Source of the DNA: Deltaproteobacteria bacterium
GTDB lineage: Bacteria > Desulfobacterota > GWC2-55-46
Direction of reading: 5' to 3'
Length of the DNA stretch: 64,000 bases
Assembly: GCA_016212705.1 (NCBI GenBank)
Contig: JACREU010000070.1
Span: 72,390-136,389 of the forward strand
Each line of letters begins with the position of its first letter. Position 1 is the stretch's first letter. A program made the position numbers and the translations under genes. The notes under the pieces were generated by a model. The model saw nothing but the letters and a program-made list of their open reading frames with translations, did not search any database and was not told the origin of the DNA. This document shows, in pieces, positions 1-54,235 of this stretch.

Positions 1-40
1 GAGACGGCCTAAAACCACATTCTGAAAGGTGTCAAGTACG

Positions 41-4194: not shown

Positions 4195-4195
4195 G

Positions 4196-5290: not shown

Positions 5291-5302
5291 CCTAAGGAGG
5301 GT

Positions 5303-5995
5303 TTGATGAACATCTTTCTGGACACCGCTAACATAGAGGAGATAAAAAAGGCTAAGAGGTGGGGGGTGCTGAAGGGGCTCACGACGAACCCATCGATTGT
5401 AGCGAGGGAAGGGAAGGACTTCGTCAAACTCGCCAAGGAGCTCTGCGATCTCGTTCACCCGTACCCTGTAAGCCTTGAGGTCGTCGACAGGACCGGCGAG
5501 GGGATGGCCGAGCAGGCCCGCACGATTTCCGAGCTCGGCAGGAACGTCGTCGTGAAGCTACCTGCGAACCCCGAAGGCCTCGCGGCCTTGAACCTCCTTA
5601 AGGGCGAGAACATAAAGACGAACCTGACGCTCGTATTCTCGACGTCCCAGGCGCTCCTCGCGATGAGCGCGGGTGCAACGTACGTAAGCCCATTTATCGG
5701 CAGGCTTGAGGACAGGGGCTACGAGGGTATAGGGCTTGTCCGCGACATCATGCACATACATAACGCCTATAAGTTCAAGACCGAGATCATAGCGGCGTCG
5801 ATACGCGACCCGCACCAGGTTATCGAGGCCGCGAAGACCGGCGCGCACATCATCACGATGCCGTTCGCTGTCCTTGAAAAGATGCTCCTTAACACCATGA
5901 CGGACACGGACCTCGAAAAATTCCTCTCCGACTGGGAAAAGGTCCCCGGCAGGGGAGAGGCCTTCTCAAGAAGGAGGGTCGAAAACGTTGGCTAA
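5303..5995 (+). CDS. fructose-6-phosphate aldolase / transaldolase type 3B (Fsa/TalC)
   Basis: MNIFLDTANIEEIKK...GLTTNPSIV is the hallmark of the Fsa/TalC subfamily. Length ~230 aa. AGGAGG RBS upstream. Confidence 0.8.
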   Translation: MMNIFLDTANIEEIKKAKRWGVLKGLTTNPSIVAREGKDFVKLAKELCDLVHPYPVSLEVVDRTGEGMAEQARTISELGRNVVVKLPANPEGLAALNLLKGENIKTNLTLVFSTSQALLAMSAGATYVSPFIGRLEDRGYEGIGLVRDIMHIHNAYKFKTEIIAASIRDPHQVIEAAKTGAHIITMPFAVLEKMLLNTMTDTDLEKFLSDWEKVPGRGEAFSRRRVENVG

Positions 5996-7022
5996 CCGAT
6001 TCAAGGCGGCCTTGTTCAAAGGCCCCGGAGAGCTTGAGGTAAGGGAGGTGTCCGCGCCGGAGTTGAACCCCGGAGAGGTCCTCGTAAGGGTGCGCGCATG
6101 CGGCATCTGCGGGAGCGACTTGAACATCTTCAGGAGAGACCCGCCCATCCCGAAGTACTGGGGCGGGCACGAGATAAGCGGAGAGGTTGCGGCGATCGGG
6201 CCTGGCGTCGAGGGGCTGAACGCGGGAGAGCGCGTGAGTGTCGCGCCGCTTATCCCGTGCGGCAAATGCGAGTTATGCAGGGCAGGGCTTGAAAACATCT
6301 GCCCGGACTGCGTATTCATAAGCTTCAACGCGCGCGGCGGCTTTTCCGAGTTCGTCGTGGCGCCCCGGGAGAACATATACAGGCTACCCGATAAAATGGG
6401 TTTTGACGAGGCGGTCTTATTGGAGCCGCTCGCCGACGTCCTGCACTCTTTTAAGAGGGCAGGCGATATTGCCGGGAAAATGATAGTCGTAGTCGGTTGC
6501 GGCACCATAGGGCTTTTGACCGTCGTTGCGGCAAAGGCGCTCGGCGCGCAAAAAATAGTAGCCATCGGCAAGTACGGCCACCAGAGGAGGCTTGCGACCA
6601 TGCTCGGGGCAGACGCGGCCCTCGGTTCAACCGACGCCGGAATTGAGAGGCTTGTTATTGAGGCGCTCAAAGGCGCGAAGGCCGACCTTGTATTCGAGAC
6701 CGTCGGCGGCTACGAGAGCGAATCGATTGCGCAGTCTTTGAATATCCTCAGGCCAGGCGGTACGCTCATGCTCTCGGGCGTACACTACAAGACGCCAAAC
6801 ATGAACCTTAAGTTCCTGACCGAGAGGGAGATAGAGATAAAGGGGACGCAGAGGTACAGGAGGGAGGACTACGCCTCTGCCATAGACCTCTATGCGAAGG
6901 GCGCGATAAACGGTTCACTCCTCGTCACCCACAGGGTGAGCCTTGAAGAAATTATGAAAGGATATTCCATCGCGTTCGACAAGGACGCTAACAGCGCGGT
7001 AAAGGTGGTCGTATGCCCGTAA
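5988..7022 (+). CDS. Zn-dependent alcohol/polyol dehydrogenase (sorbitol/threonine DH-like)
   Basis: ACGICGSDLNIF and GHEISGEV motifs; VVGCGTIG Rossmann motif. Likely TTG start. Confidence 0.7.
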   Translation: MANRFKAALFKGPGELEVREVSAPELNPGEVLVRVRACGICGSDLNIFRRDPPIPKYWGGHEISGEVAAIGPGVEGLNAGERVSVAPLIPCGKCELCRAGLENICPDCVFISFNARGGFSEFVVAPRENIYRLPDKMGFDEAVLLEPLADVLHSFKRAGDIAGKMIVVVGCGTIGLLTVVAAKALGAQKIVAIGKYGHQRRLATMLGADAALGSTDAGIERLVIEALKGAKADLVFETVGGYESESIAQSLNILRPGGTLMLSGVHYKTPNMNLKFLTEREIEIKGTQRYRREDYASAIDLYAKGAINGSLLVTHRVSLEEIMKGYSIAFDKDANSAVKVVVCP

Positions 7023-8242
7023 AAGGTAAGACGATTCTCATCATCTCAGGCGGCGTGGAGGCTGTCCCTATAATTGAGAGGGCAAAGGCCTTGGGGCTTA
7101 AGGTCGCGGTCTCGGACGGCAACCCGGACGCACCGGGCTTCAGGTTGGCTGACTTTAAGATCATCGCAAGCACGTATGACGAAAAGAAGACGGCGGAACT
7201 CGCTTTCGAGCTGAACGAGGCCGAGAGGATAGACGGCGTCATGGCCGCGGCGGCGGATGTGCCTTTGACGGTCGCCGCTGTCGCCGAAAGGTTAAAACTA
7301 CCCGGCATAAGCGTAAATTCGGCCAGGATAGTGGCGGATAAGCTCCTTATGAAGGAGACCTTTTCCGCCTCAGGGGTCCCGGTGCCGTGGTTCTCGCAGG
7401 TGAGGAGCGCGGTACACCTTGAAAAATTATTGTGGGAGAAAAAGACGCTTGTTATAAAGCCGGTGGACAGCAGAGGCGCAAGGGGTGTTGTCCGCCTCGT
7501 CGAGGGCGTCGACATCGCCTGGGCGTTTGACGAGGCTATGAAAAACTCGCCTTCCTGCAGAGTCATGGCCGAGGAGTGGGTGAACGGAAGGCAGATAAGC
7601 ACCGAATCCATTATAACACCCGATGGAGTAATAACCCCGGGGCTCTCCGACAGGAACTACGAACAGCTTGAGCGGTTCGCGCCTTTCGTAATAGAGGACG
7701 GCGGTGACCTCCCCGCGATTTTAACCGTGGATGAGAGGGCAGGGATAGACCGGATAATAGGAAAGGTCGCTCGCGCCATAGGCATGAAGAGCGGGACGAT
7801 AAAGGGCGATATAGTGATAGGGGAGTCCGGCCCCGTCGTCATAGAGGTCGCGGCGCGCTTAAGCGGCGGGTATTTTTGCAGTCACACGATACCGCTCTCA
7901 ACGGGCACGGACTTTGTCGGGGCCGCGATACTGCTGGCCCTTGGCGAGGAGATAGGGTTGAACGATTTCAGGCCGAAGGCCGCGAAGGCCGTCTGCCAGA
8001 GGTTCCTTTTTCCTGAGCCGGGAATAGTAAGAAAGGTATACGTCCCGGAGATGCAGGAGGAATCGCTTGCCATGCTCAAGGTCTATGTGAAGGTGGGCGA
8101 CGAGGTAAAGAGGATCACGAGCCACCCGTGCAGGGCGGGCATGGCGGTCACGACCGGAGATACGCGCGAAGGGGCGAGGGCCGCCATAAAGAGGGTCTTC
8201 GACAGGGTTACTGTCGTTGTAGAGCCCGGGATACCTGTTTGA
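7013..8242 (+). CDS. ATP-grasp domain enzyme
   Basis: Pre-ATP-grasp Rossmann N-terminus. Central KPVDSRGARGV region and EEWVNGRQISTESI match carboxylate-amine ligase family topology. Confidence 0.6.
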   Translation: MPVKGKTILIISGGVEAVPIIERAKALGLKVAVSDGNPDAPGFRLADFKIIASTYDEKKTAELAFELNEAERIDGVMAAAADVPLTVAAVAERLKLPGISVNSARIVADKLLMKETFSASGVPVPWFSQVRSAVHLEKLLWEKKTLVIKPVDSRGARGVVRLVEGVDIAWAFDEAMKNSPSCRVMAEEWVNGRQISTESIITPDGVITPGLSDRNYEQLERFAPFVIEDGGDLPAILTVDERAGIDRIIGKVARAIGMKSGTIKGDIVIGESGPVVIEVAARLSGGYFCSHTIPLSTGTDFVGAAILLALGEEIGLNDFRPKAAKAVCQRFLFPEPGIVRKVYVPEMQEESLAMLKVYVKVGDEVKRITSHPCRAGMAVTTGDTREGARAAIKRVFDRVTVVVEPGIPV

Positions 8243-8259
8243 ATGGAGAGGGGACCAAG

Positions 8260-9765
8260 ATGAAAAAGATACTTCTCGTCCAGCCTAACATGAGGGTCGC
8301 CACCTCCGGGCAAAGGATTGTTTATCCGCCGATCGGCATCATGTACCTCGCATCTGTCCTTGAGAAAAAAGGCTACGAGGTAGAGATACTCGACTGCCAG
8401 ACCGAGGGGTTGGATAAGGGCGCGGAGGTCATAGACGGATACGTGGAAGTCGGCATCCCAATTGACGAGATAGCCGGGAGGATAACGGCCTCAAGGCCGG
8501 ACCTCGTCGGCATTACCTGCAACTTTTCGGTCATGGTCCCGCACATGATGGAGGCGTCGCGGCTTGTTAAAAAGCTCTTTCCCTCAGTGCCGGTCGTCGC
8601 AGGGGGCAACCACCCGACGTCGCTTCCGGAAGAGGTGATGGGAGAGGGTTCAATCGACTACGTCATCATGGGCGAGGGCGAGGTCTCGTTCCCCATGCTG
8701 ATAGAGGCGATCGTGGAAGGCAAGGGCTTCGAGTCCGTCCCAGGCCTCGTCTGGAGGAGGGACGGGGCGATTATAAAAAACAAGATGGGCGCCTTAATAC
8801 ACGACCTCGACAGCCTTCCGTATCCGGCGTGGCACCTCTTCCCTTATGAGAAGTACAGCAGACACTACAAGCCCCGCGCAGTCACCTGGGGGGAGGCGCA
8901 GGCTATGCCTTCGGTCCTGACGACCCGGGGGTGCGCCGGAGGGTGCGTCTTCTGCTCGGTCCACAAGACCATGGGGAGCAAGTTCAGGGCGAGGAATCTC
9001 GACGACGTCTTCAAGGAGATACGCTTCCTTGTGGATACCTATAAGATAAAGAAGCTCATGATAATCGACGACAACTTCACGCACAACAAGAACCGGGCCA
9101 AGGAGTTCTGCGACGAGTTCAAGAAACAGGGGCTCGATATTGAATTGCACTTCATGGTGCTCGCGCTCTGGTGCATGGACGAGGAGTTGATCGACAAGCT
9201 CAAATCCATCGGGTGCGCCTCGATGGGCTTTGCTATCGAGTCAGGCGTGCAGGACATACTCACTAATGTCGTAAAGAAGCCCCTGAAGCTCGTCCGCGCG
9301 ATGGAACTCCTGAAATACGCGCGCTCTCAAGGCATACACCTTACAGGGACTTTTGTAATAGGTTTTCCGGGCGAGACGAAGTTGGACATAAGGAGGAGCC
9401 TGTACATGGCGAACTACTCGGGGCTTTTTGACAGCAGGGAGATATACATTGCCACACCGCTCCCCGGCTCCGCGCTCTTCGAGCAGTGCGTGCGGGAAGG
9501 GCTCCTCGCCGAAGGCTTTTCGTACTCGAAGGTCGAGGTAGTAAAGCCGAATATAAAGACAAAGGACTTTTCTCCGGACTTCATAACGACGATACTTGAG
9601 GCCGACAGGACGCACCACCTCATAAAGACCAATCCCAGGAGGACGCTGAGGCTCGTAAGGGACGTCTGGAGGAGGAGGCGCGAGCACTTCCTGCCCGTCT
9701 TATACGAGACCTCGAAGATGTTCGTCAAATACGACTTTCTGAGACTCAGGGAGGAGTACCCTTGA
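8260..9765 (+). CDS. B12-binding domain radical SAM protein
   Basis: N-terminal cobalamin-binding fold (KILLVQPN...GIMYLASVL). CxxxCxxC motif RGCAGGCVFCSV. ATG at 8260 with GGAGAGGGG RBS; the longer ORF from 8128 is rejected. Confidence 0.75.
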   Translation: MKKILLVQPNMRVATSGQRIVYPPIGIMYLASVLEKKGYEVEILDCQTEGLDKGAEVIDGYVEVGIPIDEIAGRITASRPDLVGITCNFSVMVPHMMEASRLVKKLFPSVPVVAGGNHPTSLPEEVMGEGSIDYVIMGEGEVSFPMLIEAIVEGKGFESVPGLVWRRDGAIIKNKMGALIHDLDSLPYPAWHLFPYEKYSRHYKPRAVTWGEAQAMPSVLTTRGCAGGCVFCSVHKTMGSKFRARNLDDVFKEIRFLVDTYKIKKLMIIDDNFTHNKNRAKEFCDEFKKQGLDIELHFMVLALWCMDEELIDKLKSIGCASMGFAIESGVQDILTNVVKKPLKLVRAMELLKYARSQGIHLTGTFVIGFPGETKLDIRRSLYMANYSGLFDSREIYIATPLPGSALFEQCVREGLLAEGFSYSKVEVVKPNIKTKDFSPDFITTILEADRTHHLIKTNPRRTLRLVRDVWRRRREHFLPVLYETSKMFVKYDFLRLREEYP

Positions 9766-11801
9766 TGTCAAAGGCGCCGCGACTGCACCTTTATACCACG
9801 TTTCACTGCAACCTCGCCTTCTCGACGATTGAGCGCGGGGCCTTCCCTACTGTCATCGAGAGGTGCTACTGGCCAATCCTCCGGCTCGCGGAAGACGGGT
9901 TCCCGGTCGCCATTGAGATGACCGCATGGACCCTTAAGGAGGTCAACGCGCTCGACCCTGGTTTTGTTTCAAGGCTTAAGGAGCTGTGGGATTTGAAGAA
10001 GATCGAGTTCATCGGCTCGGGATTTTCGCAGGCTATCTTCCCGCTCATCCCGACTGAAGTCAACCGATGGAACCTTGAGGCCGGGATGAGGCATTATACG
10101 GAGATACTCGGCAGACGCCCGGAAGTCGCGCTCGTGAACGAGCAGACGTTTTCACGCGGCCTCGTTGACCTTTATAAGGCCGCGGGCTACAAGTCCGTCA
10201 TAATGGACTGGAACAACTCTCATAAATACAATAATTTTCCGAAGGGGCTCGTCTATTTCCCGCAGAGGGCAAAGGGGCTCGCAACCGATATTGAGGTCGT
10301 CTGGAGCCATTCCATCGCCTTCCAGAAGTTCCAGAGGCTCATACACGGCGGCGTATCCACGGAAGAGTACATGGAGTACCTCGCCACGCATTATTCCAAT
10401 AGCGAGGAGAGGTCCTTTGTCCTCTATACCAACGATGCCGAGGTCTTTGATTACAGGCCCGGCAACGAAGAGGTCAAAAAGACCGAGTGGGCGCGCATAC
10501 GCGACCTGCTCTCCCGCATACGAGGGGACGAGAGGTTTACGCTCTCCACGCCCGGGAGGGTGAGCGAGTTTTTCAAGGGTAACCCGAAGGCGGGACACAG
10601 TCTCTCGCTTGAGTCAACGGAGACGCCGGTCGTATGCAAGAAGCAGGACAAATATAACCCCGCTCGCTGGGCCGTAGCCGGGAGGGACAGCGTCCACATC
10701 AACACCGAGTGCTACAGGGTCTACAAAAATATTTCAAGACTGATGGAATCCGGCGCGCTCTCCACGGACGAGGCCGACGAGTACAAGGAGCTGATCTCCG
10801 ACCTCTGGGGGAGTGATTTCAGATCCAATACGATCGACGAGAAGTTTCAGTACTTCCAGAACAGGCTCGGGTGGCTCAAAACCGAGACGGAGCGGCTCCT
10901 CAAGAGGACGCCTGTTATCGCCGGAGGCGCTCCGCCCCCCGCGCTTCAGGCCGGAGAGCCTTTAGTACACGAGGCAGGGAGGCCCTCAAAGAGAGGGGCC
11001 GGGATAACAAGGGCGGAAAACTCGCTTATCATAACGACCGGGACGGTCGAGGCGGAGTTCCTCCCCTCAAGGGGATTCGCCATTAAAAAGGCCGTCTTTC
11101 CCGGGGTCTTCGACAAGCCTCTCATAGGCACTATCCCGCACGGTTACTATGAAGACATAAGGCTCGGCGCAGACTTCTTCACCGGCCACCTTATACACGT
11201 TTCGAGGGACGGGAAGAAGACGACGGACCTTAAACCCGCCACGGCGGATATAACTGAAAACGACGCATCCGTCGTGCTTGAGGCGAAGATGCCTCTGGAC
11301 ATTGGGTTCCTGACGAAGACTTACGAGATATCGAAGACCGAGCCGTCGATATCCCTGAGCCTCAAGCTCAAGGTAAACGGCCTCCTCGCCTCCTCCTTGA
11401 GGCTCGGGATATTCACGTTCTTGCCGGGCTCTTTCGACGCTGATACCCTCTGGTACGAATCTATAAACGGAGGCGCGGGCCCGGAGAGGTTTTCCCTCAA
11501 GGGGAAAACCGTTTCCCATGACGAGCCCGTGAGCCAGGCGGTCTCTGCATCAAGCTGTCTCGGCGCGACCGACGGACGCGTAAGGATAGGGGACTGCCGG
11601 AAGGCCCTGGAGATATCGACGGACAAGTCTAAGCTCTTTTCGGTCCCTATGCTCAGGTACATGGAGCTTGCCGAGGAGGGCAAGTTTTTCCTCCGGCTAC
11701 AGCATTCCGTCGGAGAGGTCGACGACACCGCGTGGTGGGTGTGGCGCGGGGTCAACGAGATAACCTTCAACATAAAGGCCCTCAAAGGGGATGGCAAATG
11801 A
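9765..11801 (+). CDS. GH57-like / polysaccharide-deacetylase-like barrel protein (flagellin glycosylation island)
   Basis: N-terminal ~350 aa resembles the (beta/alpha)7 GH57 fold (LHLYTTFHCN, IEMTAW, VNEQTF). C-terminal half unassigned. Function uncertain. Confidence 0.35.
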   Translation: MSKAPRLHLYTTFHCNLAFSTIERGAFPTVIERCYWPILRLAEDGFPVAIEMTAWTLKEVNALDPGFVSRLKELWDLKKIEFIGSGFSQAIFPLIPTEVNRWNLEAGMRHYTEILGRRPEVALVNEQTFSRGLVDLYKAAGYKSVIMDWNNSHKYNNFPKGLVYFPQRAKGLATDIEVVWSHSIAFQKFQRLIHGGVSTEEYMEYLATHYSNSEERSFVLYTNDAEVFDYRPGNEEVKKTEWARIRDLLSRIRGDERFTLSTPGRVSEFFKGNPKAGHSLSLESTETPVVCKKQDKYNPARWAVAGRDSVHINTECYRVYKNISRLMESGALSTDEADEYKELISDLWGSDFRSNTIDEKFQYFQNRLGWLKTETERLLKRTPVIAGGAPPPALQAGEPLVHEAGRPSKRGAGITRAENSLIITTGTVEAEFLPSRGFAIKKAVFPGVFDKPLIGTIPHGYYEDIRLGADFFTGHLIHVSRDGKKTTDLKPATADITENDASVVLEAKMPLDIGFLTKTYEISKTEPSISLSLKLKVNGLLASSLRLGIFTFLPGSFDADTLWYESINGGAGPERFSLKGKTVSHDEPVSQAVSASSCLGATDGRVRIGDCRKALEISTDKSKLFSVPMLRYMELAEEGKFFLRLQHSVGEVDDTAWWVWRGVNEITFNIKALKGDGK

Positions 11802-13705
11802 CGGTATTTGAGAAGAACCGCCGTAAGATAGCCTCAAAAGACCCCGCTGTCTTCGAAAGGCTTGAAAATTGCCGGTCCGTGGAATTAGAAGAGGCGAAGT
11901 CTGGCGGAGCCACCTTCAGATACAAGGGCATATACTTCCACAGCAGATACAACCCCGCAACTGAAGCCGACGTTCAGGCAGTGGAGATGGCGGGCAAAAA
12001 GCCTGATTGGGTATTTCTCTTCGGGCTCGGTTGCGGGCACCTCTTAAGCGCGCTCGTTCGAAAGGGGTTTAAAAAGGTCATCGTCTTCGAGCCGTCAACT
12101 GAGATATTGAAAGGCGCGCTGGAGAATATCGACCTCTCTTCGGTCTTTGACGAGGAGAAGGTCTTTCTGGCGGTAGATATGCACGCGGCGATAGAGAGGC
12201 TCCGCGGTGAGACCGAAGGGTTTGATAATCTCCTTGTCTACTCCACGGCCCCGTACAGGTCCGTCTTCCCGAAAGAGCTCTCTGATTTCACGAACAGGAT
12301 ACACAACGCGCACATTACGAACCAGGTAGGCATAAAAACGGACATGAAGTCCCGGAGCGCCTGGATAGATAACTACCTCTCGAACCTGAAGGCGCTGCCT
12401 TTTGCCCCGCCCATCGATGTCCTACGGGATAAGTTCAAGGGCGTGCCGATGATAATCGCCGGGGCCGGGCCGTCGCTTAGGAAGAACGGAGAGCTCCTCA
12501 GGGAATTCAAGGGCAGGGCGCTTATAGTCGCGGCCATCACCTCGTATAAGCCGCTCTTGAAGCTTGGGGTAGTCCCGGACTTTGTAATAGCCTCCGAGAT
12601 GGTCGACCTCCCCGAGTACTTCACCTTAGGGGAGGACGACAAAAAGACGAGGCTCATCCTGGGGGAGCTTTCGCACCCCGGGATGTTCGGGAGGGATGTA
12701 AAGGGCAAGTTCGTTTTTTTCAGCCCATACCTTGCGTTATCCTCCTCTCATGCCGGGCTCTGGGGGAGCTCGTACTTCCCGGCCATAGGCGGGTCCGTGA
12801 CGACAGCGGCGCTCGACATGGGTATAATGTTCGGTTGTAACCCGATAACCTTCGTCGGGCAGGACCTCTCATTCGGGGAAAACGAGACGCACGCCCCAGG
12901 CGGCGTCTATGTGGCGCAGAACGTGAGGATAGACAAGGAAAACGGGCTGATATCCGTCGAGGACGAGTACATAAACGATAAGCAGACATACACCTACAAG
13001 CTCCAGTGGTTAAAGGGCCTCTCGGGAAAACCAGTGCCTTCGAAGTACGACTGGGCGACCTTCCACCAGTGGTTTGAGAACTACATGCATTATCTTGAAA
13101 AGGAAAGGCCCGGCGTAAGGGTCATAAACGCTACCGAGGGCGGGGCGTACATAGAGGGAATGGAGCATACGACATTAAGGCACGTGCTCGAAACCTGCCT
13201 GAACAGGGAACTGACCCTTGAGGCGACCATCGACGAGGCGGTTGCGTCGAGGCCGAGGATAGACTATACTTCTCTCGAAGCGTCTTTTAGTGATACGGCC
13301 GCGGTCTTGAGCCGGGTCAACAGGCTCGCCGCCTCAATTCTCAAGGAGGCGGCTGAGGCGAAGGGTATCTATACTAAAATGGGGCTCACCTCCGGGCTAA
13401 AGGGGAATGTAGACAGGATCAAGAGGCTTGAGGAATCGATATTCGATGAATCTGACCGCGCCAAGTTCATGTGGGAGGCGCTTATCAATAATACCTATGC
13501 CCTTAAGGAGTACCTCAAAGAGGATACGGACGGCAAGGCAGGAGAGGGCGTCCAATTTCTCCGGGACCTCGAAGCCGTAATCGTATCCTACAAGTCTATG
13601 ACAGAGGTCTGCCGGAGGTTCGCAAAAAGGTTCGAGGAGGCGGCCTCATCCATAAGGGCGGCCCAAGGCAGTGAAGAAAACAGGGGTATTGCCGCCGGGC
13701 TATGA
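11798..13705 (+). CDS. maf: motility accessory factor (Maf) family flagellin glycosyltransferase (DUF115/MptE-like)
   Basis: MIIAGAGPSLRKN and FVIASEM motifs are typical of Maf proteins. Size ~635 aa. ATGA start/stop overlap with upstream gene. Sits directly upstream of flagellin. Confidence 0.7.
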   Translation: MTVFEKNRRKIASKDPAVFERLENCRSVELEEAKSGGATFRYKGIYFHSRYNPATEADVQAVEMAGKKPDWVFLFGLGCGHLLSALVRKGFKKVIVFEPSTEILKGALENIDLSSVFDEEKVFLAVDMHAAIERLRGETEGFDNLLVYSTAPYRSVFPKELSDFTNRIHNAHITNQVGIKTDMKSRSAWIDNYLSNLKALPFAPPIDVLRDKFKGVPMIIAGAGPSLRKNGELLREFKGRALIVAAITSYKPLLKLGVVPDFVIASEMVDLPEYFTLGEDDKKTRLILGELSHPGMFGRDVKGKFVFFSPYLALSSSHAGLWGSSYFPAIGGSVTTAALDMGIMFGCNPITFVGQDLSFGENETHAPGGVYVAQNVRIDKENGLISVEDEYINDKQTYTYKLQWLKGLSGKPVPSKYDWATFHQWFENYMHYLEKERPGVRVINATEGGAYIEGMEHTTLRHVLETCLNRELTLEATIDEAVASRPRIDYTSLEASFSDTAAVLSRVNRLAASILKEAAEAKGIYTKMGLTSGLKGNVDRIKRLEESIFDESDRAKFMWEALINNTYALKEYLKEDTDGKAGEGVQFLRDLEAVIVSYKSMTEVCRRFAKRFEEAASSIRAAQGSEENRGIAAGL

Positions 13706-13765
13706 CCGGAAGTATGAAGTTTATTTTTAAAGCTCTTGTTTTTAAACGGTTTTCAGGAGATTTGG

Positions 13766-14359
13766 ATGGCCAAGGTCTATCTCGATAACATGCAGATCGA
13801 TTACGAGGACACCGGCAAGGACTCAACGATCCGGGAGCTCGTTAGCGCCCTTGACAAGGAACTATTCTCTCTCAAGCGTTTCATCTTTGAGATAGCCGTG
13901 GACGGGACAGACGCGCCGCACGGATGGAGGGGAGGGGAGTTGTCGGGGAGAAAGCTCTCTGAGTGCGCTGATATCCGGCTTACGACCACATCCGTCGAAG
14001 ACATGGCGATAGTTGGGCTCGATACCGTGCGCGAGTATATAAATGTCATCGGCGAGACGATAGAGGCCTGCGTGAAGGACTTGAGGATCGGGTCTCCTTC
14101 CGCAGAGGTGGCCTTCTCGACGGTATTCGATGGCGTAATTGAGGTGGTAAAGACCATGGACGCCCTCTCACAGGGGACGGTCCGCTATAATATGAAGCTT
14201 TTCAAAAAGAAGCCGGAGGAGTACTACAGCCCCCTCCACCAGAAGCTTGAAACCATTACAAATGTCAGGAAAAGCGGGGACACCGTCCTCCTCGCGGACG
14301 TATTGGAGTATGAGCTCAAGCCTCTTTTGGAGGAGATAAAAGAAGAGGTCTTCCATTAG
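13766..14359 (+). CDS. hypothetical protein between maf and fliC
   Basis: ORF of 197 aa with CAGGAGAT RBS. No recognisable motif. Position suggests a flagellin-associated function. Confidence 0.4.
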   Translation: MAKVYLDNMQIDYEDTGKDSTIRELVSALDKELFSLKRFIFEIAVDGTDAPHGWRGGELSGRKLSECADIRLTTTSVEDMAIVGLDTVREYINVIGETIEACVKDLRIGSPSAEVAFSTVFDGVIEVVKTMDALSQGTVRYNMKLFKKKPEEYYSPLHQKLETITNVRKSGDTVLLADVLEYELKPLLEEIKEEVFH

Positions 14360-14372
14360 GCTAAAAAAAAGT

Positions 14373-14399
14373 TAAAGTAAAAAAACTCACCGCCGATAT
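14373..14399 (+). promoter_or_regulatory. sigma-28 (FliA) type promoter for fliC
   Basis: TAAAGT-N13-GCCGATAT close to the FliA consensus TAAA-N15-GCCGATAA. Preceded by an A8 tract. About 120 nt upstream of fliC. Confidence 0.55.
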
Positions 14400-14518
14400 A
14401 AATATTAAGAGGAGAGAGGCGAGTAAGGCCGAAAAGGAGGGTGGACTTAAGGCCGGCTGAAGACCTCAACACAAAACACGGCAAGGATGCCGATGTAAAA
14501 CACTAAGGAGGGTACACC

Positions 14519-15349
14519 ATGTCATTAGTCATCAATACAAACGTCGCCGCACTCGTAGCCCAGCAGAACCTCGCCACTTCGAACTCCCAGCTGAAAGTAA
14601 GCGTACAGAGACTCTCATCCGGCTTCAGGATCAACAGCTCAGCGGACGATGCCGCGGGCCTTGGCCGCGCCGACCAGCTTAAATCACAGTCGAGGATGAT
14701 CCAGGCCTCCATAAGGAACGTCAACGACGGCGTGAGCGCCATGGAAATAAGCGACAAGGTCGCCGAGCAGATCACGAACATCGTCACAAGGATGGGCGAA
14801 CTGGCCGCAAGCGCCGCGCAGGGCACCCTGGACACCACCAACAGGACCTACTACAGCGACGAGTTCGACAAGCTCAAGAGCGAAATCGACAGGATCGCGA
14901 ACACCACCGAGTTCGGCGGCTACAAGCTCATCAACGGCGACACGTCCTATCTTACGATGTACATAGGCTTCAAGAACTCCACGAACGACCAGCTCTCCGT
15001 ATCGCTAAAGGTCTTGACCACCGGCGCCAGCGGCCTTAACCTCTCGAGCGGCATACTCGGCTCCATCACCGGGGCCCTCTCCGCCCTCGATTCCGTCAGC
15101 GCGGCTTTGAAGACCATCAACGACGCAAGAGCCATCTACGGCGCCTCCTCCAACAGGCTGACCGCGGCGCTTTCGAACCTCCAGGTGACCTTCACGAACT
15201 ACCAGGCCGCCGAATCGAGGATAAGGGACGCGGACTTCGCCTACGAGACCGCGCAGTACACAAAGAACCAGATAATGGTCCAGGCCGGCACCTCGGTGCT
15301 CGCCCAGGCCAACACACTGCCGCAGAACGCGCTTTCGCTTCTTAGGTAG
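14519..15349 (+). CDS. fliC: flagellin
   Basis: Canonical N-terminus MSLVINTNVAALVAQQNLATSNSQL...QRLSSGFRINSAADDAAGL and C-terminus LAQANTLPQNALSLLR. AGGAGGG RBS. Short form, 276 aa. Confidence 0.9.
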   Translation: MSLVINTNVAALVAQQNLATSNSQLKVSVQRLSSGFRINSSADDAAGLGRADQLKSQSRMIQASIRNVNDGVSAMEISDKVAEQITNIVTRMGELAASAAQGTLDTTNRTYYSDEFDKLKSEIDRIANTTEFGGYKLINGDTSYLTMYIGFKNSTNDQLSVSLKVLTTGASGLNLSSGILGSITGALSALDSVSAALKTINDARAIYGASSNRLTAALSNLQVTFTNYQAAESRIRDADFAYETAQYTKNQIMVQAGTSVLAQANTLPQNALSLLR

Positions 15350-15371
15350 TCAAAGATTTAAGCCTTGATCT

Positions 15372-15396
15372 GGCGGGGAGGCTCTGCCTCCCCGCC
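15372..15396 (+). terminator. perfect 11-bp GC hairpin downstream of fliC (no U-tract)
   Basis: GGCGGGGAGGC-TCT-GCCTCCCCGCC lies 22 nt after the fliC stop. Confidence 0.35.
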
Positions 15397-15413
15397 AAGT
15401 CCAGGGAGGGCAT

Positions 15414-15782
15414 ATGAGCATGGAATTCGCGATAAAGGACATTTCAAGGGCCGCAACTGAAAGGCCCGGCGAGGCATCCGGCAAGACCGCCGCCGCTAAA
15501 AAGGCCGAGGTGCGCTCGGGCGTAATCACGGACGCGGCCGAGGCCAAAAAGGACCTGCCCCCGAAGGAAGTCGAGGAGATAGCCTCCGACGTCCAGATCC
15601 ACCTGAAGAGGCTCAACACCGAGCTCAGGTTCGAGGTCGACAATGAATCGGATGAAATGATCATAAAGATCATCGACCCCGAGACCAAGCAGGTGATAAG
15701 GCAGATACCGTCTGAAGAGCTCCTTGCCATAAGGGAGCGGATGAAAGACCTTATAGGGGTCCTTTACAACGCCAGGTCCTGA
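15414..15782 (+). CDS. flaG: flagellar protein FlaG
   Basis: C-terminal IIKIIDPETKQVIRQIPSEELLAIRERM matches the FlaG family. ~120 aa. Located between fliC and fliD. Confidence 0.75.
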   Translation: MSMEFAIKDISRAATERPGEASGKTAAAKKAEVRSGVITDAAEAKKDLPPKEVEEIASDVQIHLKRLNTELRFEVDNESDEMIIKIIDPETKQVIRQIPSEELLAIRERMKDLIGVLYNARS

Positions 15783-15821
15783 AACGACCGGAGAACTCCA
15801 TCTCCATAGGAGCACCGAGCC

Positions 15822-17150
15822 ATGGCCATTTCCGCGACCTCAGGGGTCGTCAGCAACATAGACTATCAAACTCTCATCTCCCAGCTCGTCGGCATAAGAA
15901 GGCAGTCGATTACACAGCTCTCGGAAGATAAGAAGACTCTCGAGAAGACCAACAGCGCCTACTCCAACCTGAACTCCAAGGTCGACGAGTTAAAGAGCGC
16001 GGCTGACGCCCTCAGGAACATGTCCGCCTTCAAGGTGTTCAAGACGACGGTTAGCGACGAGACGATACTCGGCGGCACTGCGTCATCGACCGCGTCAAAG
16101 GGGAGCTATTCGATCGTTGTCACGAACATCGCCAAGGCGCATAAGATAGCGGCCGACGGGTTTGCCGCCGAGACCTCGACAATCGCGGGGGCGGCGGGCT
16201 CCTTCAAGTTCACGGTAGGCGCGGGGGCCGAGCAGACGGTCGCGGTAGACGCCACGACGACGCTCGCCAATCTCCGGGACTCGATAAACGCGCTCGGCGC
16301 GGGGGTCACGGCCTCGATCGTAAACGACGGAAGCGCTACACCCTACAGGCTGATACTCACGAGCGGATCGACAGGGGCTTCAAACGGCGTCACCGTCACG
16401 CAGAACGACACAACGGTCGCGTTCAACACGACCCTCCAGGCCGCGCAGGACGCCTCGTTCACAGTCGACACCATGTCCTTCACGAGGGCGTCGAACACCA
16501 TCACCGACGTCATAACCGGCGTCACCCTCGATCTTAAAAGCGGGGACGCGGCCAAGACAGTCACGCTCTCCGTGGACAGGGACTCCGACAAGATCGCGGA
16601 AAAGGTCACGGAGCTTCTGGACAAGTACAATTCCGCGGTCTCGTACATAAAGGCGAACAACCGCTACGACAGCGAGACGAAGGTAGCCGGCGCGTTTTTC
16701 GGGGACACCGTGGCCAGGTCCGTATGGGACGACTTGAGAAAGGTCATGTCGGGGGCGGTAGCCGGCCTGCCCGACACGATGAACAGGCTCCTCCACATAG
16801 GCGTCACGAGCAGTACGGACGGCGTATACTCACTCGACTCGTCCAAGCTCAAAACCGCGCTTTCGTCGAGCTTCGACGACGTCGTCGCCCTCTTCGAGGA
16901 CGGGACCACGACCGACGGTTTCGGGGCCCTTATGTACAATGCCACATTTGGCATAACAGACACCGCGGACGGCAGGATAAAGGGAAGGCAGGACGGCCTC
17001 CAGGACAATATTAAAAAAATAGACGACGACATAAGGAACAAGGAGTACACGCTTTCGCTTTACGAGGACCAGCTCCGCGCGCAGTTCATGGGTCTTGAGT
17101 CGATGCTCGCGAGCCTTAAGACCCAGTCCAGCTTCCTTTCGAATTTATAG
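15822..17150 (+). CDS. fliD: flagellar filament cap protein FliD
   Basis: N-terminal ISGLVSNIDYQTLISQL-like region and C-terminal coiled coil (LQDNIKKIDDDIRNKEYTL...LESMLASLKTQSSFLS). Confidence 0.85.
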   Translation: MAISATSGVVSNIDYQTLISQLVGIRRQSITQLSEDKKTLEKTNSAYSNLNSKVDELKSAADALRNMSAFKVFKTTVSDETILGGTASSTASKGSYSIVVTNIAKAHKIAADGFAAETSTIAGAAGSFKFTVGAGAEQTVAVDATTTLANLRDSINALGAGVTASIVNDGSATPYRLILTSGSTGASNGVTVTQNDTTVAFNTTLQAAQDASFTVDTMSFTRASNTITDVITGVTLDLKSGDAAKTVTLSVDRDSDKIAEKVTELLDKYNSAVSYIKANNRYDSETKVAGAFFGDTVARSVWDDLRKVMSGAVAGLPDTMNRLLHIGVTSSTDGVYSLDSSKLKTALSSSFDDVVALFEDGTTTDGFGALMYNATFGITDTADGRIKGRQDGLQDNIKKIDDDIRNKEYTLSLYEDQLRAQFMGLESMLASLKTQSSFLSNL

Positions 17151-17158
17151 GAGATCCC

Positions 17159-17578
17159 ATGAACAGGGTGGCGCAGTACCAGAATATACAGGTGATGACC
17201 GCGGACAAGGTCCGCATAATAATAATGCTCTACGACGGGGTATTGCGTTTCAACAGGTGCGCACAGAAGGCCATAGCAGAGAAGAAAATCGAGTCCCGCA
17301 ACCTCTACATAAACAAGTCGCTGGCGATCATAAGCGAGCTCGCCAACTCCCTCAATATGGAGGAGGGCGGCGAAGTCGCCATGAACCTCGCGAGGCTTTA
17401 CGACTTCGCGCAGTCGAGCCTCACAAAGGCGAACCTCACTAACGACGCGTCCGCCATAGACGGGGTCAACAGGGTGATGGCCGAGCTCAAGGCCGGATGG
17501 GAGGCGATAGCGCACTCTTCGAGCGCCACCGCCGCGGAGCCGAGGCGCGAGGGAGCGGGGGTGAGCTATGGGGGCTGA
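17159..17578 (+). CDS. fliS: flagellin-specific chaperone FliS
   Basis: YQNIQVMTADKVRIIIMLYDGVLRF...IISELANSLN is the typical FliS four-helix bundle sequence. Confidence 0.85.
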   Translation: MNRVAQYQNIQVMTADKVRIIIMLYDGVLRFNRCAQKAIAEKKIESRNLYINKSLAIISELANSLNMEEGGEVAMNLARLYDFAQSSLTKANLTNDASAIDGVNRVMAELKAGWEAIAHSSSATAAEPRREGAGVSYGG

Positions 17579-35937: not shown

Positions 35938-35965
35938 TTGACACAAAAGAAAAACCCGCTATTAT
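35938..35965 (+). promoter_or_regulatory. sigma-70 type promoter candidate
   Basis: TTGACA-N16-TATTAT about 70 nt upstream of the pncA-like gene. Confidence 0.35.
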
Positions 35966-36033: not shown

Positions 36034-36624
36034 ATGAGGAACAGGAGCGCCCTCGTCATAGTCGACCTCCAGAACGACTTCTGCCCCAAAGGGGCGCTAC
36101 CGGTACCGGGTGGCGACGGGATAGTCCCGGTTGTAAACAGGTATCTGGACCTTTTTATGGCCGCCGGGGTGCAGGTCTTCTTCACAAGAGACTGGCACCC
36201 GGCAAGGACTGTCCACTTTAAGGAATTCGGCGGCTCGTGGCCGCCGCACTGCGTACAGGGGACAGAGGGCGCGCGATTCCATCCGGGGGTTAAGATGCCC
36301 GCTGACGCGGTAATAATCACAAAGGGCGAATCTCCGGAAGGCGACAGCTACTCCGGTTTTGACGGCTTTGACCCTGTTGGCCTGGACTTCGAGGCCTCCA
36401 TCAAGGGGAGGGGTATAACGCACATCTACCTTGGAGGGCTCGCGGGAGACTACTGCGTAAAGGCGACCGCGCTGGACGGACTTGGCAGAGGCTTCAAGGT
36501 GACGGTCCTCCTCGACGCCATAAAGGGCGTTGACGCCAGGCCCGGCGATTCGGAGAGGGCACTCGAAGAGATGCTGGCAAAAGGCGCCGAAACGTCTACG
36601 ATAGACGAGATAGACTTCACATAA
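36034..36624 (+). CDS. pncA: nicotinamidase / isochorismatase-family cysteine hydrolase
   Basis: ALVIVDLQNDFCPKGALPV and a catalytic Cys region (GGLAGDYCV) typical of PncA. Confidence 0.75.
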   Translation: MRNRSALVIVDLQNDFCPKGALPVPGGDGIVPVVNRYLDLFMAAGVQVFFTRDWHPARTVHFKEFGGSWPPHCVQGTEGARFHPGVKMPADAVIITKGESPEGDSYSGFDGFDPVGLDFEASIKGRGITHIYLGGLAGDYCVKATALDGLGRGFKVTVLLDAIKGVDARPGDSERALEEMLAKGAETSTIDEIDFT

Positions 36625-36637
36625 TAAAGGACGGATT

Positions 36638-36969
36638 ATGGACGCGCCAAGGATAACAAGGGAAGAGCTCAAGAGGAAGATAGAGGCCGGGGAGCCGCTT
36701 ACGATACTCGACGTCCGTAACACGACCGATTACGCGGCCTCCTCAAAGAGGTTGCCAAAGGCGATACGGATACCTTTAAAAGAGCTCGAGTTAAGGTTAG
36801 GCGAACTCGATAAGGCGAAAGAGGCGGTAGCCTACTGCACCTGAACAGACGAGCACTCGAGCGCCGGTGCGGCGCTCATCCTCCTGGACAATGGGTTTAA
36901 AAAGGCGAGCGCGCTCATAGGCGGCTTCAGCGCGTGGCAGGCGTCTGGACTGCCGCTTGACGATAAGTA
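36638..36969 (+). CDS. single-domain rhodanese sulfurtransferase with in-frame TGA at the catalytic Cys position (candidate selenoprotein) and a 3'-proximal A-run frameshift
   Basis: N-terminal rhodanese fold (ITREELKRKIEAGEPLTILDVRNTTDYAASS...AVAYC-T-[TGA]-TDEHSSAGAALILLDNGF). Alignment to GlpE (MCYHGNSSKGAA) places the UGA exactly at the catalytic Cys. The C-terminal rhodanese motif KASALIGGFSAWQASGLP is in the -1 frame after an A4 run at 36899-36902. Confidence 0.5.
36859..36877 (+). promoter_or_regulatory. bSECIS-like hairpin downstream of the in-frame UGA
   Basis: GAGCGCC-GGUGC-GGCGCUC, a 7-bp stem with a G/U-containing apical loop. Starts 14 nt after UGA (36842-36844); the apical loop is 21 nt downstream. 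Confidence 0.35.
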
Positions 36970-37042
36970 GCTGAATACGCGCTCAACCCCAGCCAAAGGC
37001 TTCATCAAGCCTTTGGAAAAAAATATCAGGTATACCTGTCCA

Positions 37043-51519: not shown

Positions 51520-52503
51520 TTACCTCTTCCCGTACATCCTTGCCACGAACTCCCCGTAGCCGTTGTACTTTATCGTAGGCACGCGCTCGTCCGTATCTAT
51601 TATCCGCTCCGTCGCCTGCGACCAGCGCGGGTGCGGGACCTCGGGGTTGACGTTCGCGGTGAAATCGTACTCATCCGGCGCGAGCGTGTTCCAGAAGGTC
51701 TTGGGCTCCTCTTCCACGAAGTCTATCTTTACAATCGACTTTATGTTCTTGAAGCCGTACTTCCACGGGACGATGAGCCTTATGGGCGCGCCGTGCTGTT
51801 TCGGGAGCTCGTGGCCGTATATGCCGGTCGCGATGAACGTCAGCTCATTCATAGCCTCCTCCATAGTAAGCCCCTCTTCATAGGGCCAGGGGAGCCAGAA
51901 CCGGAGCTTTTGGCTGAGGGCCCAGCTCCTGTTGTGGAAGGTCCTCATCCTTATGTATTTCGCCGACGACATCGGCGAGACCTTTTTTATGAGAGCGCTT
52001 AAGGGAAACCCGGTCCACGGGACGGTCATGGCCCACGCCTCCACGCACCTGAACCTGTACAGGCGTTCTTCAAGCGGCAGTTCCCTTACGAGTTCGTCTA
52101 TGTCATAGACGCGGGGCTTGTGCACGAGCCCGCCTACTTCCACCTGCCAGGGGCGCGTCTCCATCGCATCCACATCCTTCCAGACGCTCTTAAACGACGA
52201 GAACTCGTAAAAGTTATTGTATTTGGCCGCCGCGAGCTCGTCGGTTATCTTCCGGTCGACCGCGTATTTTGCGTTCCTCTGCGCGGGGTAGAGGTGTGAG
52301 GTCAAAGTCCTGGGTATCTTTATGATCCCTTCCTCTCCCTTTTTCCCGAAGAGGTCGAATATGGACGCGTTGTTCAGAAAAAGCCCGGCGTTCACCCCAA
52401 CTACCCCCATCATCTTTACGAAGTCGCGCCTCTTGAGGTATATATCCTCGGGTGTCGCCTCGCTTTCGGGCCTCTCCCACTGTTTTTTACGTTTAATGAG
52501 CAT
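51520..52503 (-). CDS. msrP: protein-methionine-sulfoxide reductase catalytic subunit MsrP (YedY; molybdopterin oxidoreductase)
   Basis: Tat signal RRDFVKMMGVVGV. Sulfite-oxidase-like Moco domain (YRFRCVEAWAMTVPWTGFPL). True ATG at 52503 (MLIKRKKQW); the extended ORF to 52908 is rejected. Confidence 0.8.
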   Translation of the reverse strand: MLIKRKKQWERPESEATPEDIYLKRRDFVKMMGVVGVNAGLFLNNASIFDLFGKKGEEGIIKIPRTLTSHLYPAQRNAKYAVDRKITDELAAAKYNNFYEFSSFKSVWKDVDAMETRPWQVEVGGLVHKPRVYDIDELVRELPLEERLYRFRCVEAWAMTVPWTGFPLSALIKKVSPMSSAKYIRMRTFHNRSWALSQKLRFWLPWPYEEGLTMEEAMNELTFIATGIYGHELPKQHGAPIRLIVPWKYGFKNIKSIVKIDFVEEEPKTFWNTLAPDEYDFTANVNPEVPHPRWSQATERIIDTDERVPTIKYNGYGEFVARMYGKR

Positions 52504-52588
52504 GTATTGAGTATATCCTAAAACCAGCCCTTGACAATGGGGCCGGTTTTTGAAAACCTGATAGTATAAAGACTTTAAGGGAGATCGA

Positions 52589-54235
52589 ATGATAAAGACG
52601 GCGGCCGACCTTTTTGTAGAGTGCCTGGAGAGGGAAGGGGTAAGGTATATTTTCGGCATCCCGGGAGAAGAGTCGCTCGTGCTCCTTGAATCCATCAGGA
52701 AGTCTTCCATAAAGTTCATTGTGACGAGGCACGAGCAGGCCGCGGCGTTCATGGCCGCGACATGCGGACGCTTGACAGGCAGGGCCGGGGTTGTGCTCTC
52801 GACCCTGGGGCCGGGCGCAACGAACCTTGTAACGGGTGTGGCCTTTGCGCAATTGGGAGGGATGCCGCTTGTCGTCATCACCGGGCAGAAACCCGTAAGA
52901 CGCTCCAAACAGGGGCTCTTTCAGATTATCAACGTCCTTGAGATGATGTCGCCCATAACAAAGGCGACAAGGCAGATTACCTCGGGCGACCTTGTCCCTT
53001 CGCTCGTCAGGGAGGCGTTCAGGAGGGCGGAGGAGGAGAGGCCCGGAGCAGTGCACCTCGAGTTCCCCGAGGACATCGCTTCCGAGCACGCGATAGCGGG
53101 CCCGATAGACTCTGCGAAACTGCGGAGACCCGGCCCTGACGCCAAGGCGATAGAGACGGCGGTCGACATGATAGAGGCCTCAAGCCACCCGCTCCTACTC
53201 ATCGCCGCGGCGGCGAACAGGAAGAGGGTCTCGGTCGAGCTCGAGGAGCTCATACGGAAGACCGGCATCCCGTTCTTCACGACACAGATGGGCAAGGGTG
53301 TGGTCGACGAGAGGAGCGTGCTGTCGCTCGGCACCGCGGCGTTATCGGAAAAGGACTTCCTTCACAGGGCCATAGAGCGCTCTGACCTCATAATCGCCGT
53401 CGGGCACGACGTAACGGAAAAACCGCCCGCCATCATGGGCTATGACAGCCGCAAGGTCATTCATATAAACTTCTATTCAGCCCCGGTCGACGACGTTTAT
53501 TATCCCACGCACGAGGTCCTGGGGGACATCGCCCAGAGCATCCGGGCCATAACGGCGCTCGTAAGGCCGCAGTCGCATTGGGACTTCGGGTTTTTCATGA
53601 AGGTCATCGCGTCGCGGAAGGCCCATGTGCTGGAAAAGTCCGGCGACGACGGCTTCCCCGTAAAGCCGCAGAGGCTCGTCTCCGAGTTAAGAAGGCACAT
53701 CCCGGCAGACGGCATACTCGCGCTCGATAATGGCATGTACAAGATATGGATAGCGAGAAACTACCCCGCATACGCGAGGAACACGGTCCTCCTTGACAAC
53801 GCGCTCGCCTCGATGGGCGCCGGGCTTTCAGCGGCGATTGCGGCAAAGATCATAAACCCTGAGAGGAAGGTCGTGTGTGTCGCGGGCGACGGCGGCTTCA
53901 TGATGAACTCGCAGGAGATAGAGACCGCGATAAGGCTCTCACTCGACCTCGTCGTCGTCATAGTAAACGACGGGGGCTACGGCATGATAAAATGGAAACA
54001 GGACTCGATGAGGCTACCGGCCTTCGGGCTTGATTTTTCCAACCCGGATTTTATCAAATACGCCGAGAGCTACGGGGCAAAGGGGGCGAGGGTGAATAGC
54101 GCCGGGGAACTCGGGCGAGAGCTCTCGGACGCCATTAATTCGAGCGGCGTGACCATCATAGATTGCCCGATAGATTATTCGGAGAACGTAAGGGTCCTTA
54201 CAGACGAACTGACCATTAAGACATCACTGCTGTAA
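52589..54235 (+). CDS. thiamine-pyrophosphate enzyme, acetolactate synthase large-subunit-like
   Basis: TPP_N (YIFGIPGEESL), central domain, and TPP_C with GDGGFMMNSQEIETA...VIVNDGGYGMI. Confidence 0.75.
   Translation: MIKTAADLFVECLEREGVRYIFGIPGEESLVLLESIRKSSIKFIVTRHEQAAAFMAATCGRLTGRAGVVLSTLGPGATNLVTGVAFAQLGGMPLVVITGQKPVRRSKQGLFQIINVLEMMSPITKATRQITSGDLVPSLVREAFRRAEEERPGAVHLEFPEDIASEHAIAGPIDSAKLRRPGPDAKAIETAVDMIEASSHPLLLIAAAANRKRVSVELEELIRKTGIPFFTTQMGKGVVDERSVLSLGTAALSEKDFLHRAIERSDLIIAVGHDVTEKPPAIMGYDSRKVIHINFYSAPVDDVYYPTHEVLGDIAQSIRAITALVRPQSHWDFGFFMKVIASRKAHVLEKSGDDGFPVKPQRLVSELRRHIPADGILALDNGMYKIWIARNYPAYARNTVLLDNALASMGAGLSAAIAAKIINPERKVVCVAGDGGFMMNSQEIETAIRLSLDLVVVIVNDGGYGMIKWKQDSMRLPAFGLDFSNPDFIKYAESYGAKGARVNSAGELGRELSDAINSSGVTIIDCPIDYSENVRVLTDELTIKTSLL

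Follow-up and report, generated by a model that had tools for sequence, protein, structure and literature searches.

A single-domain rhodanese gene of a Deltaproteobacteria bacterium with an in-frame UGA that is very likely decoded as selenocysteine

Introduction

A rhodanese reading frame that is interrupted by a single TGA and then continues in the same frame raises the question of whether the TGA ends a fragment or is read as selenocysteine (Sec) inside a longer protein. Such a frame lies on the forward strand of the DNA analyzed here, a stretch of 64,000 nucleotides from a Deltaproteobacteria bacterium (assembly GCA_016212705.1, contig JACREU010000070.1, positions 72,390 to 136,389), which is referred to below as the window. 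The open reading frame (ORF) runs from the ATG at 36638 to a TGA at 36842–36844, giving 68 amino acids, and past the TGA it stays open for 41 codons (TDEHSSAGAALILLDNGFKKASALIGGFSAWQASGLPLDDK) before closing at the TAG at 36968–36970. A first-pass annotation, made from the letters of the window, had proposed that this UGA and a GC-rich hairpin behind it mark a candidate selenocysteine sulfurtransferase, with the UGA at the place of the catalytic cysteine. The data described below indicated that the window encodes, at 36638–36970, very likely one gene for a 110-residue single-domain rhodanese whose codon 69, a UGA, is decoded as Sec, and they led us to a different view of the active site.

Results and Discussion

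The Frame Downstream of the TGA Completes a Rhodanese Domain

The product obtained by reading through the TGA was compared with the Pfam rhodanese model PF00581. The match covered residues 7–102, and thus extended across the TGA, with a score of 55.3 bits (E = 9.6e-15) against a gathering score of 22.2 bits. This bore out the first-pass description of 68 rhodanese codons followed, after the TGA, by a rhodanese-like continuation in the same frame; of the span given for the gene, 36638–36969, the start was correct, but the end fell one base short of the stop, whose last base is 36970. The AlphaFold2 model of the 110-residue product showed a complete rhodanese fold (predicted local distance difference test score, 95.3; predicted template modeling score, 0.88), and a Foldseek comparison of this model with solved rhodaneses gave template modeling (TM) scores of 0.76–0.87. 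According to the model, a 68-residue product would miss the active-site helix as well as the last strand and the last helix. No in-frame ATG, GTG or TTG occurs 3' of the UGA within the gene in the window, so that the C-terminal part is not separately translatable.

TGA serves as an ordinary stop in the window, where it ends 14 of 57 large ORFs, some of them with complete Pfam domains. Because TGA is a normal stop here, a genetic code in which UGA is generally a sense codon was excluded.

The TGA Is Invariant among Orthologues and the Downstream Codons Are under Purifying Selection

Fifteen distinct orthologues were assembled from metagenome-assembled genomes (MAGs) of groundwater Deltaproteobacteria, species-representative genomes and JGI metagenomes; 13 of them were analyzed codon by codon, and the other two are the metagenome forms L021 and L023. 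The nucleotide identity among the 13 orthologues was 61–96%. Codon 69 was TGA in all 13, and likewise in L021 and L023, and in all orthologues the frame remained open for exactly 41 codons beyond the TGA, up to a common end position. The terminal stop at codon 111, on the other hand, was interchangeable (TAA in eight, TAG in three and TGA in two of the 13). The ratio of nonsynonymous to synonymous substitution rates (dN/dS) 3' of the TGA was 0.07–0.42, similar to or below that of the 5' part, and immediately past the second stop the nucleotide identity between orthologues was 0.20–0.29. The 41 codons downstream of the TGA evolve under purifying selection.

These observations bear on two explanations for which the first-pass annotation had left room. 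According to the first, a nonsense mutation turned a TGC or TGT into TGA in a decaying rhodanese gene, and a 68-residue fragment, or nothing functional, is made. The TGA is indeed one base from a Cys codon, all gene callers stop at it, and there are eight clusters of 68-residue “hypothetical proteins”. The TGA, however, recurs in all orthologues, even where the N-terminal protein identity is as low as 56%, and the orthologues have diverged too far to stem from a single recent mutant as near-identical copies. Whereas a pseudogene would gather frameshifts and further stops, the downstream frame is intact, of equal length and under the selection described above, its conservation being lost only after the second stop, and no orthologue shows downstream decay. 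According to the second explanation, the TGA is an assembly or sequencing error for a true TGC or TGT, for which the single-base distance and nothing more can be cited; the TGA was present in independent assemblies of different samples (NCBI MAGs, JGI, ENA and Logan runs). Given an invariant TGA, a conserved downstream frame, an identity that collapses only after the second stop and otherwise normal TGA stops, both explanations were ruled out: we consider the nonsense mutation exceedingly improbable, and the probability of an error vanishingly small.

The conservation behind the TGA could also be taken to reflect an antisense ORF or a structured 3' untranslated region, with the TGA as a genuine stop. 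An antisense ORF of 58 amino acids does exist on the minus strand at 36832–37008. The substitutions, however, follow the codon phase of the plus strand, with synonymous changes at third positions and conservative replacements, and the downstream peptide completes both the Pfam rhodanese model, to residue 102, and the three-dimensional fold, whereas the 68-residue product would be without half of the domain. We therefore regard a genuine stop at codon 69 as very improbable.

Two metagenome forms deserve separate mention. The rhodanese copy L026 (OBIZ01003175.1, 1501–1750) has the UGA and the hairpin as in L021, with its N-terminal half out of frame; this frame break is probably a sequencing indel rather than the mark of a pseudogene. 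In the divergent orthologue represented by L022/L023 (Ga0209341_10128000 and Ga0209431_10160035), the loop at the putative Sec reads U-H-E-E-H-S-S instead of U-T-[DE]-E-H-S-S, two residues are inserted in the N-terminal half, and there is one residue fewer after GF.

A Conserved Hairpin Follows the UGA

The first-pass annotation had described a 7-bp GC hairpin with a GGUGC loop, placed 14 nt past the UGA in the geometry of a bacterial Sec insertion sequence (bSECIS) element, and folding of the RNA confirmed it. The hairpin has 8 bp with a GUG loop or, equivalently, 7 bp with a GGUGC loop; it begins exactly 14 nt past the UGA and spans 14–36 nt downstream, with its apical loop at 22 nt. Its energy was −14.0 kcal/mol as an isolated stem-loop and −15.5 kcal/mol for the centroid. 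The consensus bSECIS model (PMC13188914) has a loop of 3–9 nt, an upper stem of 4–16 bp, a distance of 16–37 nt between UGA and loop, and a minimum free energy (MFE) of −7.5 kcal/mol or below, and it also wants a G in the first two loop positions, usually then followed by G or U (PMC13188914). With its 8-bp stem, GUG loop and 22-nt spacing, the hairpin lies within every one of these constraints. In common with the SECIS element of E. coli fdhF, it is a stem-loop that lies within coding sequence shortly past the UGA and has G-U in the apical loop at a defined distance; it differs from that element in having no sequence similarity to it, a very short loop (3–5 nt) and no identified bulged U, and its SelB site is putative.

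Among the orthologues, the conserved core consists of GCGCC (36861–36865) paired with GGCGC (36871–36875), 5 bp that close a (G/C)GUG(C) loop, and in the clade of the window the stem is extended to 8 bp. The pairing of the core was 100% in 13 sequences. The lower helix was only 83% paired across the orthologues, no better than in shuffles, and is weakly supported. The core codons 75, 76, 78 and 79 (AGC GCC .. GCG GCG) are four- to six-fold degenerate, and each of them was represented by one codon in 13/13 sequences; such single-codon usage was seen at 4 of 41 other degenerate codons with an invariant amino acid (hypergeometric p = 4.7e-4). These data pointed to a constraint on the hairpin at the RNA level in addition to that at the protein level.

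In L023, the hairpin reads GCGCA-CGGGC-UGCGC, in which a C-G pair is replaced by A-U through two synonymous third-position substitutions; in the loop, GG stands in place of GU, which the bSECIS model likewise permits. RNAalifold detected no covariation in 11 sequences, the core being invariant in them. The compensatory change is visible only through L023, because the core does not vary in the less divergent orthologues.

The frequency of comparable hairpins was determined for all 1780 TGA trinucleotides on both strands of the window. A bSECIS-like hairpin (≤ −7.5 kcal/mol) was found behind 6.1% of them, and one as stable as that of the rhodanese gene (≤ −14.0 kcal/mol) behind only 12 (0.67%). 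The folding z-score of the whole fragment was −0.86 to −1.94. By itself, the hairpin is mildly to moderately unusual, and it is the conservation among orthologues that lifts the finding above chance.

Cys67 Probably Occupies the Catalytic Position and Sec69 the Position Two Residues Further

An exhaustive HMMER search of 1.84 billion representatives returned two kinds of relatives. The truncated ones, of 68–69 amino acids and 56–70% identity, end in ...VVAYCT, and the full-length homologues, at 38–47% identity, have an active-site loop of the form YC[ST]C[PLH]xE..S. The first-pass annotation had proposed to examine the residue that homologues carry at the UGA: the column that is TGA in 13/13 orthologues is Cys in 11 of 19 distant homologues (YC[ST]C), and L019 has AYCTC. 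Such a column, with TGA in some sequences and Cys in others, is the classical signature of a Sec/Cys pair. Together with the invariant TGA, the low dN/dS downstream of it and the RNA-level constraint, the Cys homologues strongly supported the proposal of a Sec-encoding UGA with a SECIS hairpin.

The placement of that UGA in the active site did not hold up in the same way. The UGA had been put exactly at the position of the catalytic Cys, with the Cys of AYCT one residue off-register, and an ungapped BLASTP alignment with GlpE, anchored on the SS-x-GAA helix, likewise set the Sec against GlpE Cys65. When the family profile was aligned with five solved rhodanese-domain proteins (including 3tp9, 6mxv and 6pfz; four of the five with the canonical Cys), the first Cys of the motif fell on the canonical Cys, and a two-residue gap was placed directly before the helix. 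DSSP assigned to the AlphaFold2 model a strand at 62–66, a six-residue loop at 67–72 (C-T-U-T-D-E) and a helix from 73. In the homologues, the first Cys was kept in four proteins without the second, and the second was never present without the first. Because the profile alignment, the DSSP assignment and the conservation pattern agree, we favor the register in which Cys67 probably is the canonical catalytic position and Sec69 the loop position +2, the two forming a CxU dyad.

The designation as a sulfurtransferase was not supported either. The active-site loop is acidic (T-D/E-E-H), two residues longer than that of thiosulfate sulfurtransferases and without their basic residues, and Glu72 is conserved where canonical enzymes carry Arg. 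Such an acidic, Arg-less loop would argue against thiosulfate as the substrate.

One homologue of 127 amino acids, P0062, has the loop LYCTWPSENTS, with Trp in the Sec69 column; TGG is one base from TGA. This Trp could mark a site that once held Sec or Cys, or it may hint at how UGA can be misread.

The Gene Belongs Beside a Known Family of Predicted CxU Selenoproteins

In NCBIfam, the best match by a wide margin was NF041203 (“rhodanese_LYCAU”), a model for a rhodanese-related (seleno)protein, with E = 4.1e-26 over profile positions 19–126 of 126. Positions 1–18 remained unmatched, as the window protein starts at the rhodanese domain and has no N-terminal extension. The Y-C-x-U/C motif is present at the start of its active-site loop (AYC-T-U). 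The Cys homologues P0029, P0058 and P0079 passed the curated cutoff of this model with 115.5–121 bits, and the orthologue L016 reached 108.1 bits, below the cutoff of 115.

A review of 2026 distinguishes five forms of rhodanese selenoprotein, among them “form 3, NF041203, CxU”, and the CxU form is carried by two reviews; the review traces the CxU rhodanese back to Zhang and Gladyshev (2005) and their bSECISearch study. The first-pass statement that Sec-containing rhodaneses are a reported family was thus borne out by the reviews and by NF041203. The window protein resembles the NF041203 proteins in its single rhodanese domain and in the C-x-U or C-x-C that opens the loop ahead of a conserved Glu, and Sec and Cys forms coexist within the family. 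It differs from them in its motif, AYCTU against LYCAU, and in its N-terminus: those of P0029, P0058 and P0079 are hydrophobic and, by eye, signal-peptide-like, these proteins being probably exported, whereas the window protein lacks an N-terminus of this kind. Its product is, from the sequence, probably located in the cytoplasm. On these sequence features, the gene is best described as belonging to a signal-less AYCTU sister clade of the known predicted CxU selenoprotein family, that is, of NF041203 and its neighborhood.

Other Sec-containing rhodaneses comprise forms 1, 2 and 4 (UxxS and UxxG), TsoB (UxxxxU) and the UxU form of Olavius symbionts. They share with the window protein the rhodanese domain, a Sec in or near the active-site loop and an origin in Deltaproteobacteria-type anaerobes. 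The UxxS and UxxG motifs, however, begin with a Sec that probably replaces the catalytic Cys, whereas the window protein keeps the canonical Cys and adds a Sec at +2; in the UxU form, Sec takes the place of the first Cys of the CxU dyad as well.

The single-domain thiosulfate sulfurtransferases of the GlpE/PspE type (PDB 1gmx) have the fold (Foldseek TM score, 0.76) and the start of the SS-x-GAA helix in common with the window protein, but the GlpE loop, CYHGNS, has six residues and one Cys, whereas the loop C-T-U-T-D-E-H-S is two residues longer, acidic and free of basic residues. The GlpE model NF001195 gave 29.4 bits (cutoff, 102) and the PspE model 19.9 bits (cutoff, 102), and the six-residue CX4[R/S/T] loop with a single Cys that defines thiosulfate sulfurtransferases of the GlpE/PspE type is absent. 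By sequence, the rhodanese-homology domains of Alr3790 (PDB 3k9r and 3ilm) and lp_1913 (PDB 3flh) rank among the nearest solved relatives (E about 4e-9). Alr3790 has an acidic D-E loop (GDEQTS) in common with the window protein, but no Cys at the aligned active-site position, where the window protein has its Cys/Sec dyad.

Evidence That Weighs against Decoding as Selenocysteine

Four observations count against a Sec at codon 69. Neither the 64-kb window nor the ~331 kb that it and related loci make up yielded a selA, selB, selD or tRNA-Sec. The score of the window protein against NF041203, 91.1 bits, lies below the curated cutoff of 115. The covariation in the hairpin is a single event that was matched by 42 of 500 shuffles, and is therefore supportive rather than decisive. 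Finally, the conservation of the hairpin coincides in part with that of the conserved peptide SSA[GR]AA.

The first of these points is the outcome of several searches. ARAGORN and Rfam detected no tRNA-Sec in the window, and Pfam scans of about 40 window ORFs yielded no SelA, SelB or SelD domains. In the 13 related loci, the sole tRNA reported by ARAGORN was a tRNA-Gly, and tblastn with E. coli SelD and SelA found no match in the ~331 kb. When the GC-rich window was scanned for further ORFs interrupted by a TGA, 128 pairs came up, mostly spurious, and none made a convincing second selenoprotein. According to a review, the Thermodesulfobacteriota (formerly Deltaproteobacteria) are among the most selenoprotein-rich groups, which is a prior and not evidence.

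The negative searches for Sec machinery in these loci could be taken to favor a Sec-independent read-through of the UGA, by near-cognate Trp or Cys insertion or by leaky termination programmed by the hairpin, with an ordinary residue at position 69, and the Trp of P0062 in this column points in the same direction. Against it stand the spacing, the loop size and the loop G-U or G-G of the hairpin, which fit the SelB-type bSECIS model, and the Cys of the homologous column, a hallmark of Sec/Cys pairs. Moreover, the closest curated family is a selenoprotein family, and the TGA is invariant although a one-base change would give Cys or Trp; the hosts are annotated as Deltaproteobacteria, with the group's richness in selenoproteins entering as a prior only. 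We consider Sec-independent read-through unlikely, with a small share of the probability, and decoding as Sec remains the reading that we adopt.

Proposed Mechanism of Decoding and Catalysis

By the standard bacterial pathway, SelB·GTP·Sec-tRNA(Sec) would bind the stem-loop while the ribosome sits at the UGA. SelB would then deliver Sec in place of release factor 2, and translation would run on to the TAG at 36968. The resulting product would bear the dyad Cys67-Thr68-Sec69 (CxU) at the start of the active-site loop.

How the enzyme works, and what Cys67 and Sec69 each contribute, can only be inferred. The most likely chemistry would be a two-chalcogen redox or transfer cycle, in which the selenolate may act as nucleophile or carrier and Cys67 may resolve the intermediate via an intramolecular selenenylsulfide. 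In the Cys homologues, CxC would support an equivalent cycle. Such a cycle would set these proteins apart from GlpE-type rhodaneses, which work by a simple persulfide ping-pong. Tentatively, and with more doubt than confidence, we raise the possibility that the AYCTU clade is a distinct catalytic type of rhodanese, in which Sec69, rather than replacing the catalytic Cys, would provide a second chalcogen two residues past it, within the enlarged, acidic loop with its conserved Glu, and form an intramolecular Cys-Sec selenenylsulfide instead of serving as a persulfide carrier. If this were true, the enzyme might be, for example, a reductase or a sulfur/selenium relay for a non-anionic substrate.

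Public Records of the Gene Are Truncated at the UGA

The public record of the gene ends at 36844 (MBI4949540.1; 68 amino acids; “hypothetical protein”; locus tag HY955_05280). A search of 5.8 billion proteins found 8 clusters at 78–100% identity, all called as exactly 68 amino acids, whose members are “hypothetical proteins” in groundwater “Deltaproteobacteria bacterium” MAGs. At least 8 public clusters are thus truncated, among them MBI4949540.1, OGP24220.1, OGP34402.1, HAO93838.1 and MBI5453599.1, and every public record found for the rhodanese gene is annotated in this form. The real product behind these 68-residue records is very probably a 110-residue selenoprotein. The annotation is uniformly truncated because the clade falls just outside NF041203, the model that the NCBI pipeline would use for rescue; NF041203 misses the AYCTU clade by 7–24 bits, and the new sequences could widen it.

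The finding is an annotation correction within a catalogued family and opens no new category of biology. The rhodanese case shows how selenoproteins go uncounted in uncultured groundwater Deltaproteobacteria. The CxU rhodanese group, still uncharacterized in function, gains a probably cytoplasmic branch, and the Sec and Cys forms make a clean set for testing the Cys-x-Sec dyad in a rhodanese active site.

Features of the Locus and of the Surrounding Window

The coordinates of the gene, its elements and its upstream neighbor are collected in Table 1.

Table 1. Features of the rhodanese locus (positions in the window).
Feature	Coordinates	Strand	Remarks
Nicotinamidase/pyrazinamidase-like gene	36034–36624	+	13 nt upstream; NF008623, 166 bits (cutoff, 174)
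Shine-Dalgarno-like AAGGA	36627–36631	+	6 nt ahead of the ATG; read from the sequence
Full selenoprotein coding sequence (very likely), single-domain rhodanese	36638–36970	+	110 codons and TAG stop
TGC, Cys67	36836–36838	+	Opens the CxU dyad; probable match to the canonical catalytic Cys of rhodaneses (homologue alignment, AlphaFold2 model, profile alignment)
TGA, codon 69, putative Sec codon	36842–36844	+	Invariant in orthologues; Cys in distant homologues
bSECIS-like element as a whole	36846–36886	+	MFE fold; lower helices 36846–36848/36884–36886 and 36851–36853/36881–36883
Upper stem-loop GAGCGCCG-GUG-CGGCGCUC	36859–36877	+	Arms 36859–36866 and 36870–36877; loop 36867–36869
True stop, TAG	36968–36970	+	Position identical in all orthologues, codon variable; identity drop 3' of the stop

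The nicotinamidase-like gene and the rhodanese gene are probably co-transcribed; a promoter-like site at 35938–35965 matched at 11 of 12 positions. An M16 peptidase gene lies further upstream, and an aspartate ammonia-lyase gene converges from downstream. This neighborhood is conserved across the clade, with the nicotinamidase-like neighbor in all orthologous loci, and the synteny of the locus looks vertically inherited. The genomic context gives no functional clue to the rhodanese. The M16 peptidase is one gene of 882–888 amino acids in the window and in the other loci; at 6780–9216 of L001 (GCA_003455015.1, DMSP01000068.1) it appears as two overlapping ORFs of 462 and 400 amino acids, a split that points to a frameshift or to an error of assembly.

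A perfect 10-bp inverted repeat, CCAAAGGCTT-CATC-AAGCCTTTGG, at 36993–37023, followed by A7, lies in the 72 nt that separate the convergent rhodanese and aspartate ammonia-lyase genes. A terminator scan did not report this repeat, its T-run being on the wrong side for either strand, and the flank that holds it is not conserved as a whole in the orthologues.

Elsewhere in the window, a run of genes within 29–17578 stands directly upstream of genes for flagellin (14519–15349), FliD (fliD, 15822–17150) and FliS (fliS, 17159–17578). The run includes a GFO/IDH/MocA oxidoreductase, two S-adenosylmethionine (SAM) methyltransferases, two zinc alcohol dehydrogenases and a transaldolase, and further an ATP-grasp ligase, a B12-binding radical SAM enzyme, a GH57 protein and an MptE/Maf-like protein, and it looks like an island for flagellin glycosylation or modification. 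Finally, the longest ORFs of a gene with a molybdopterin-oxidoreductase domain on the minus strand (51520–52908) and of a thiamine pyrophosphate-enzyme gene on the plus strand (52589–54235) overlap head-to-head by about 320 nt; the TTG start assigned to the former is probably too far upstream.

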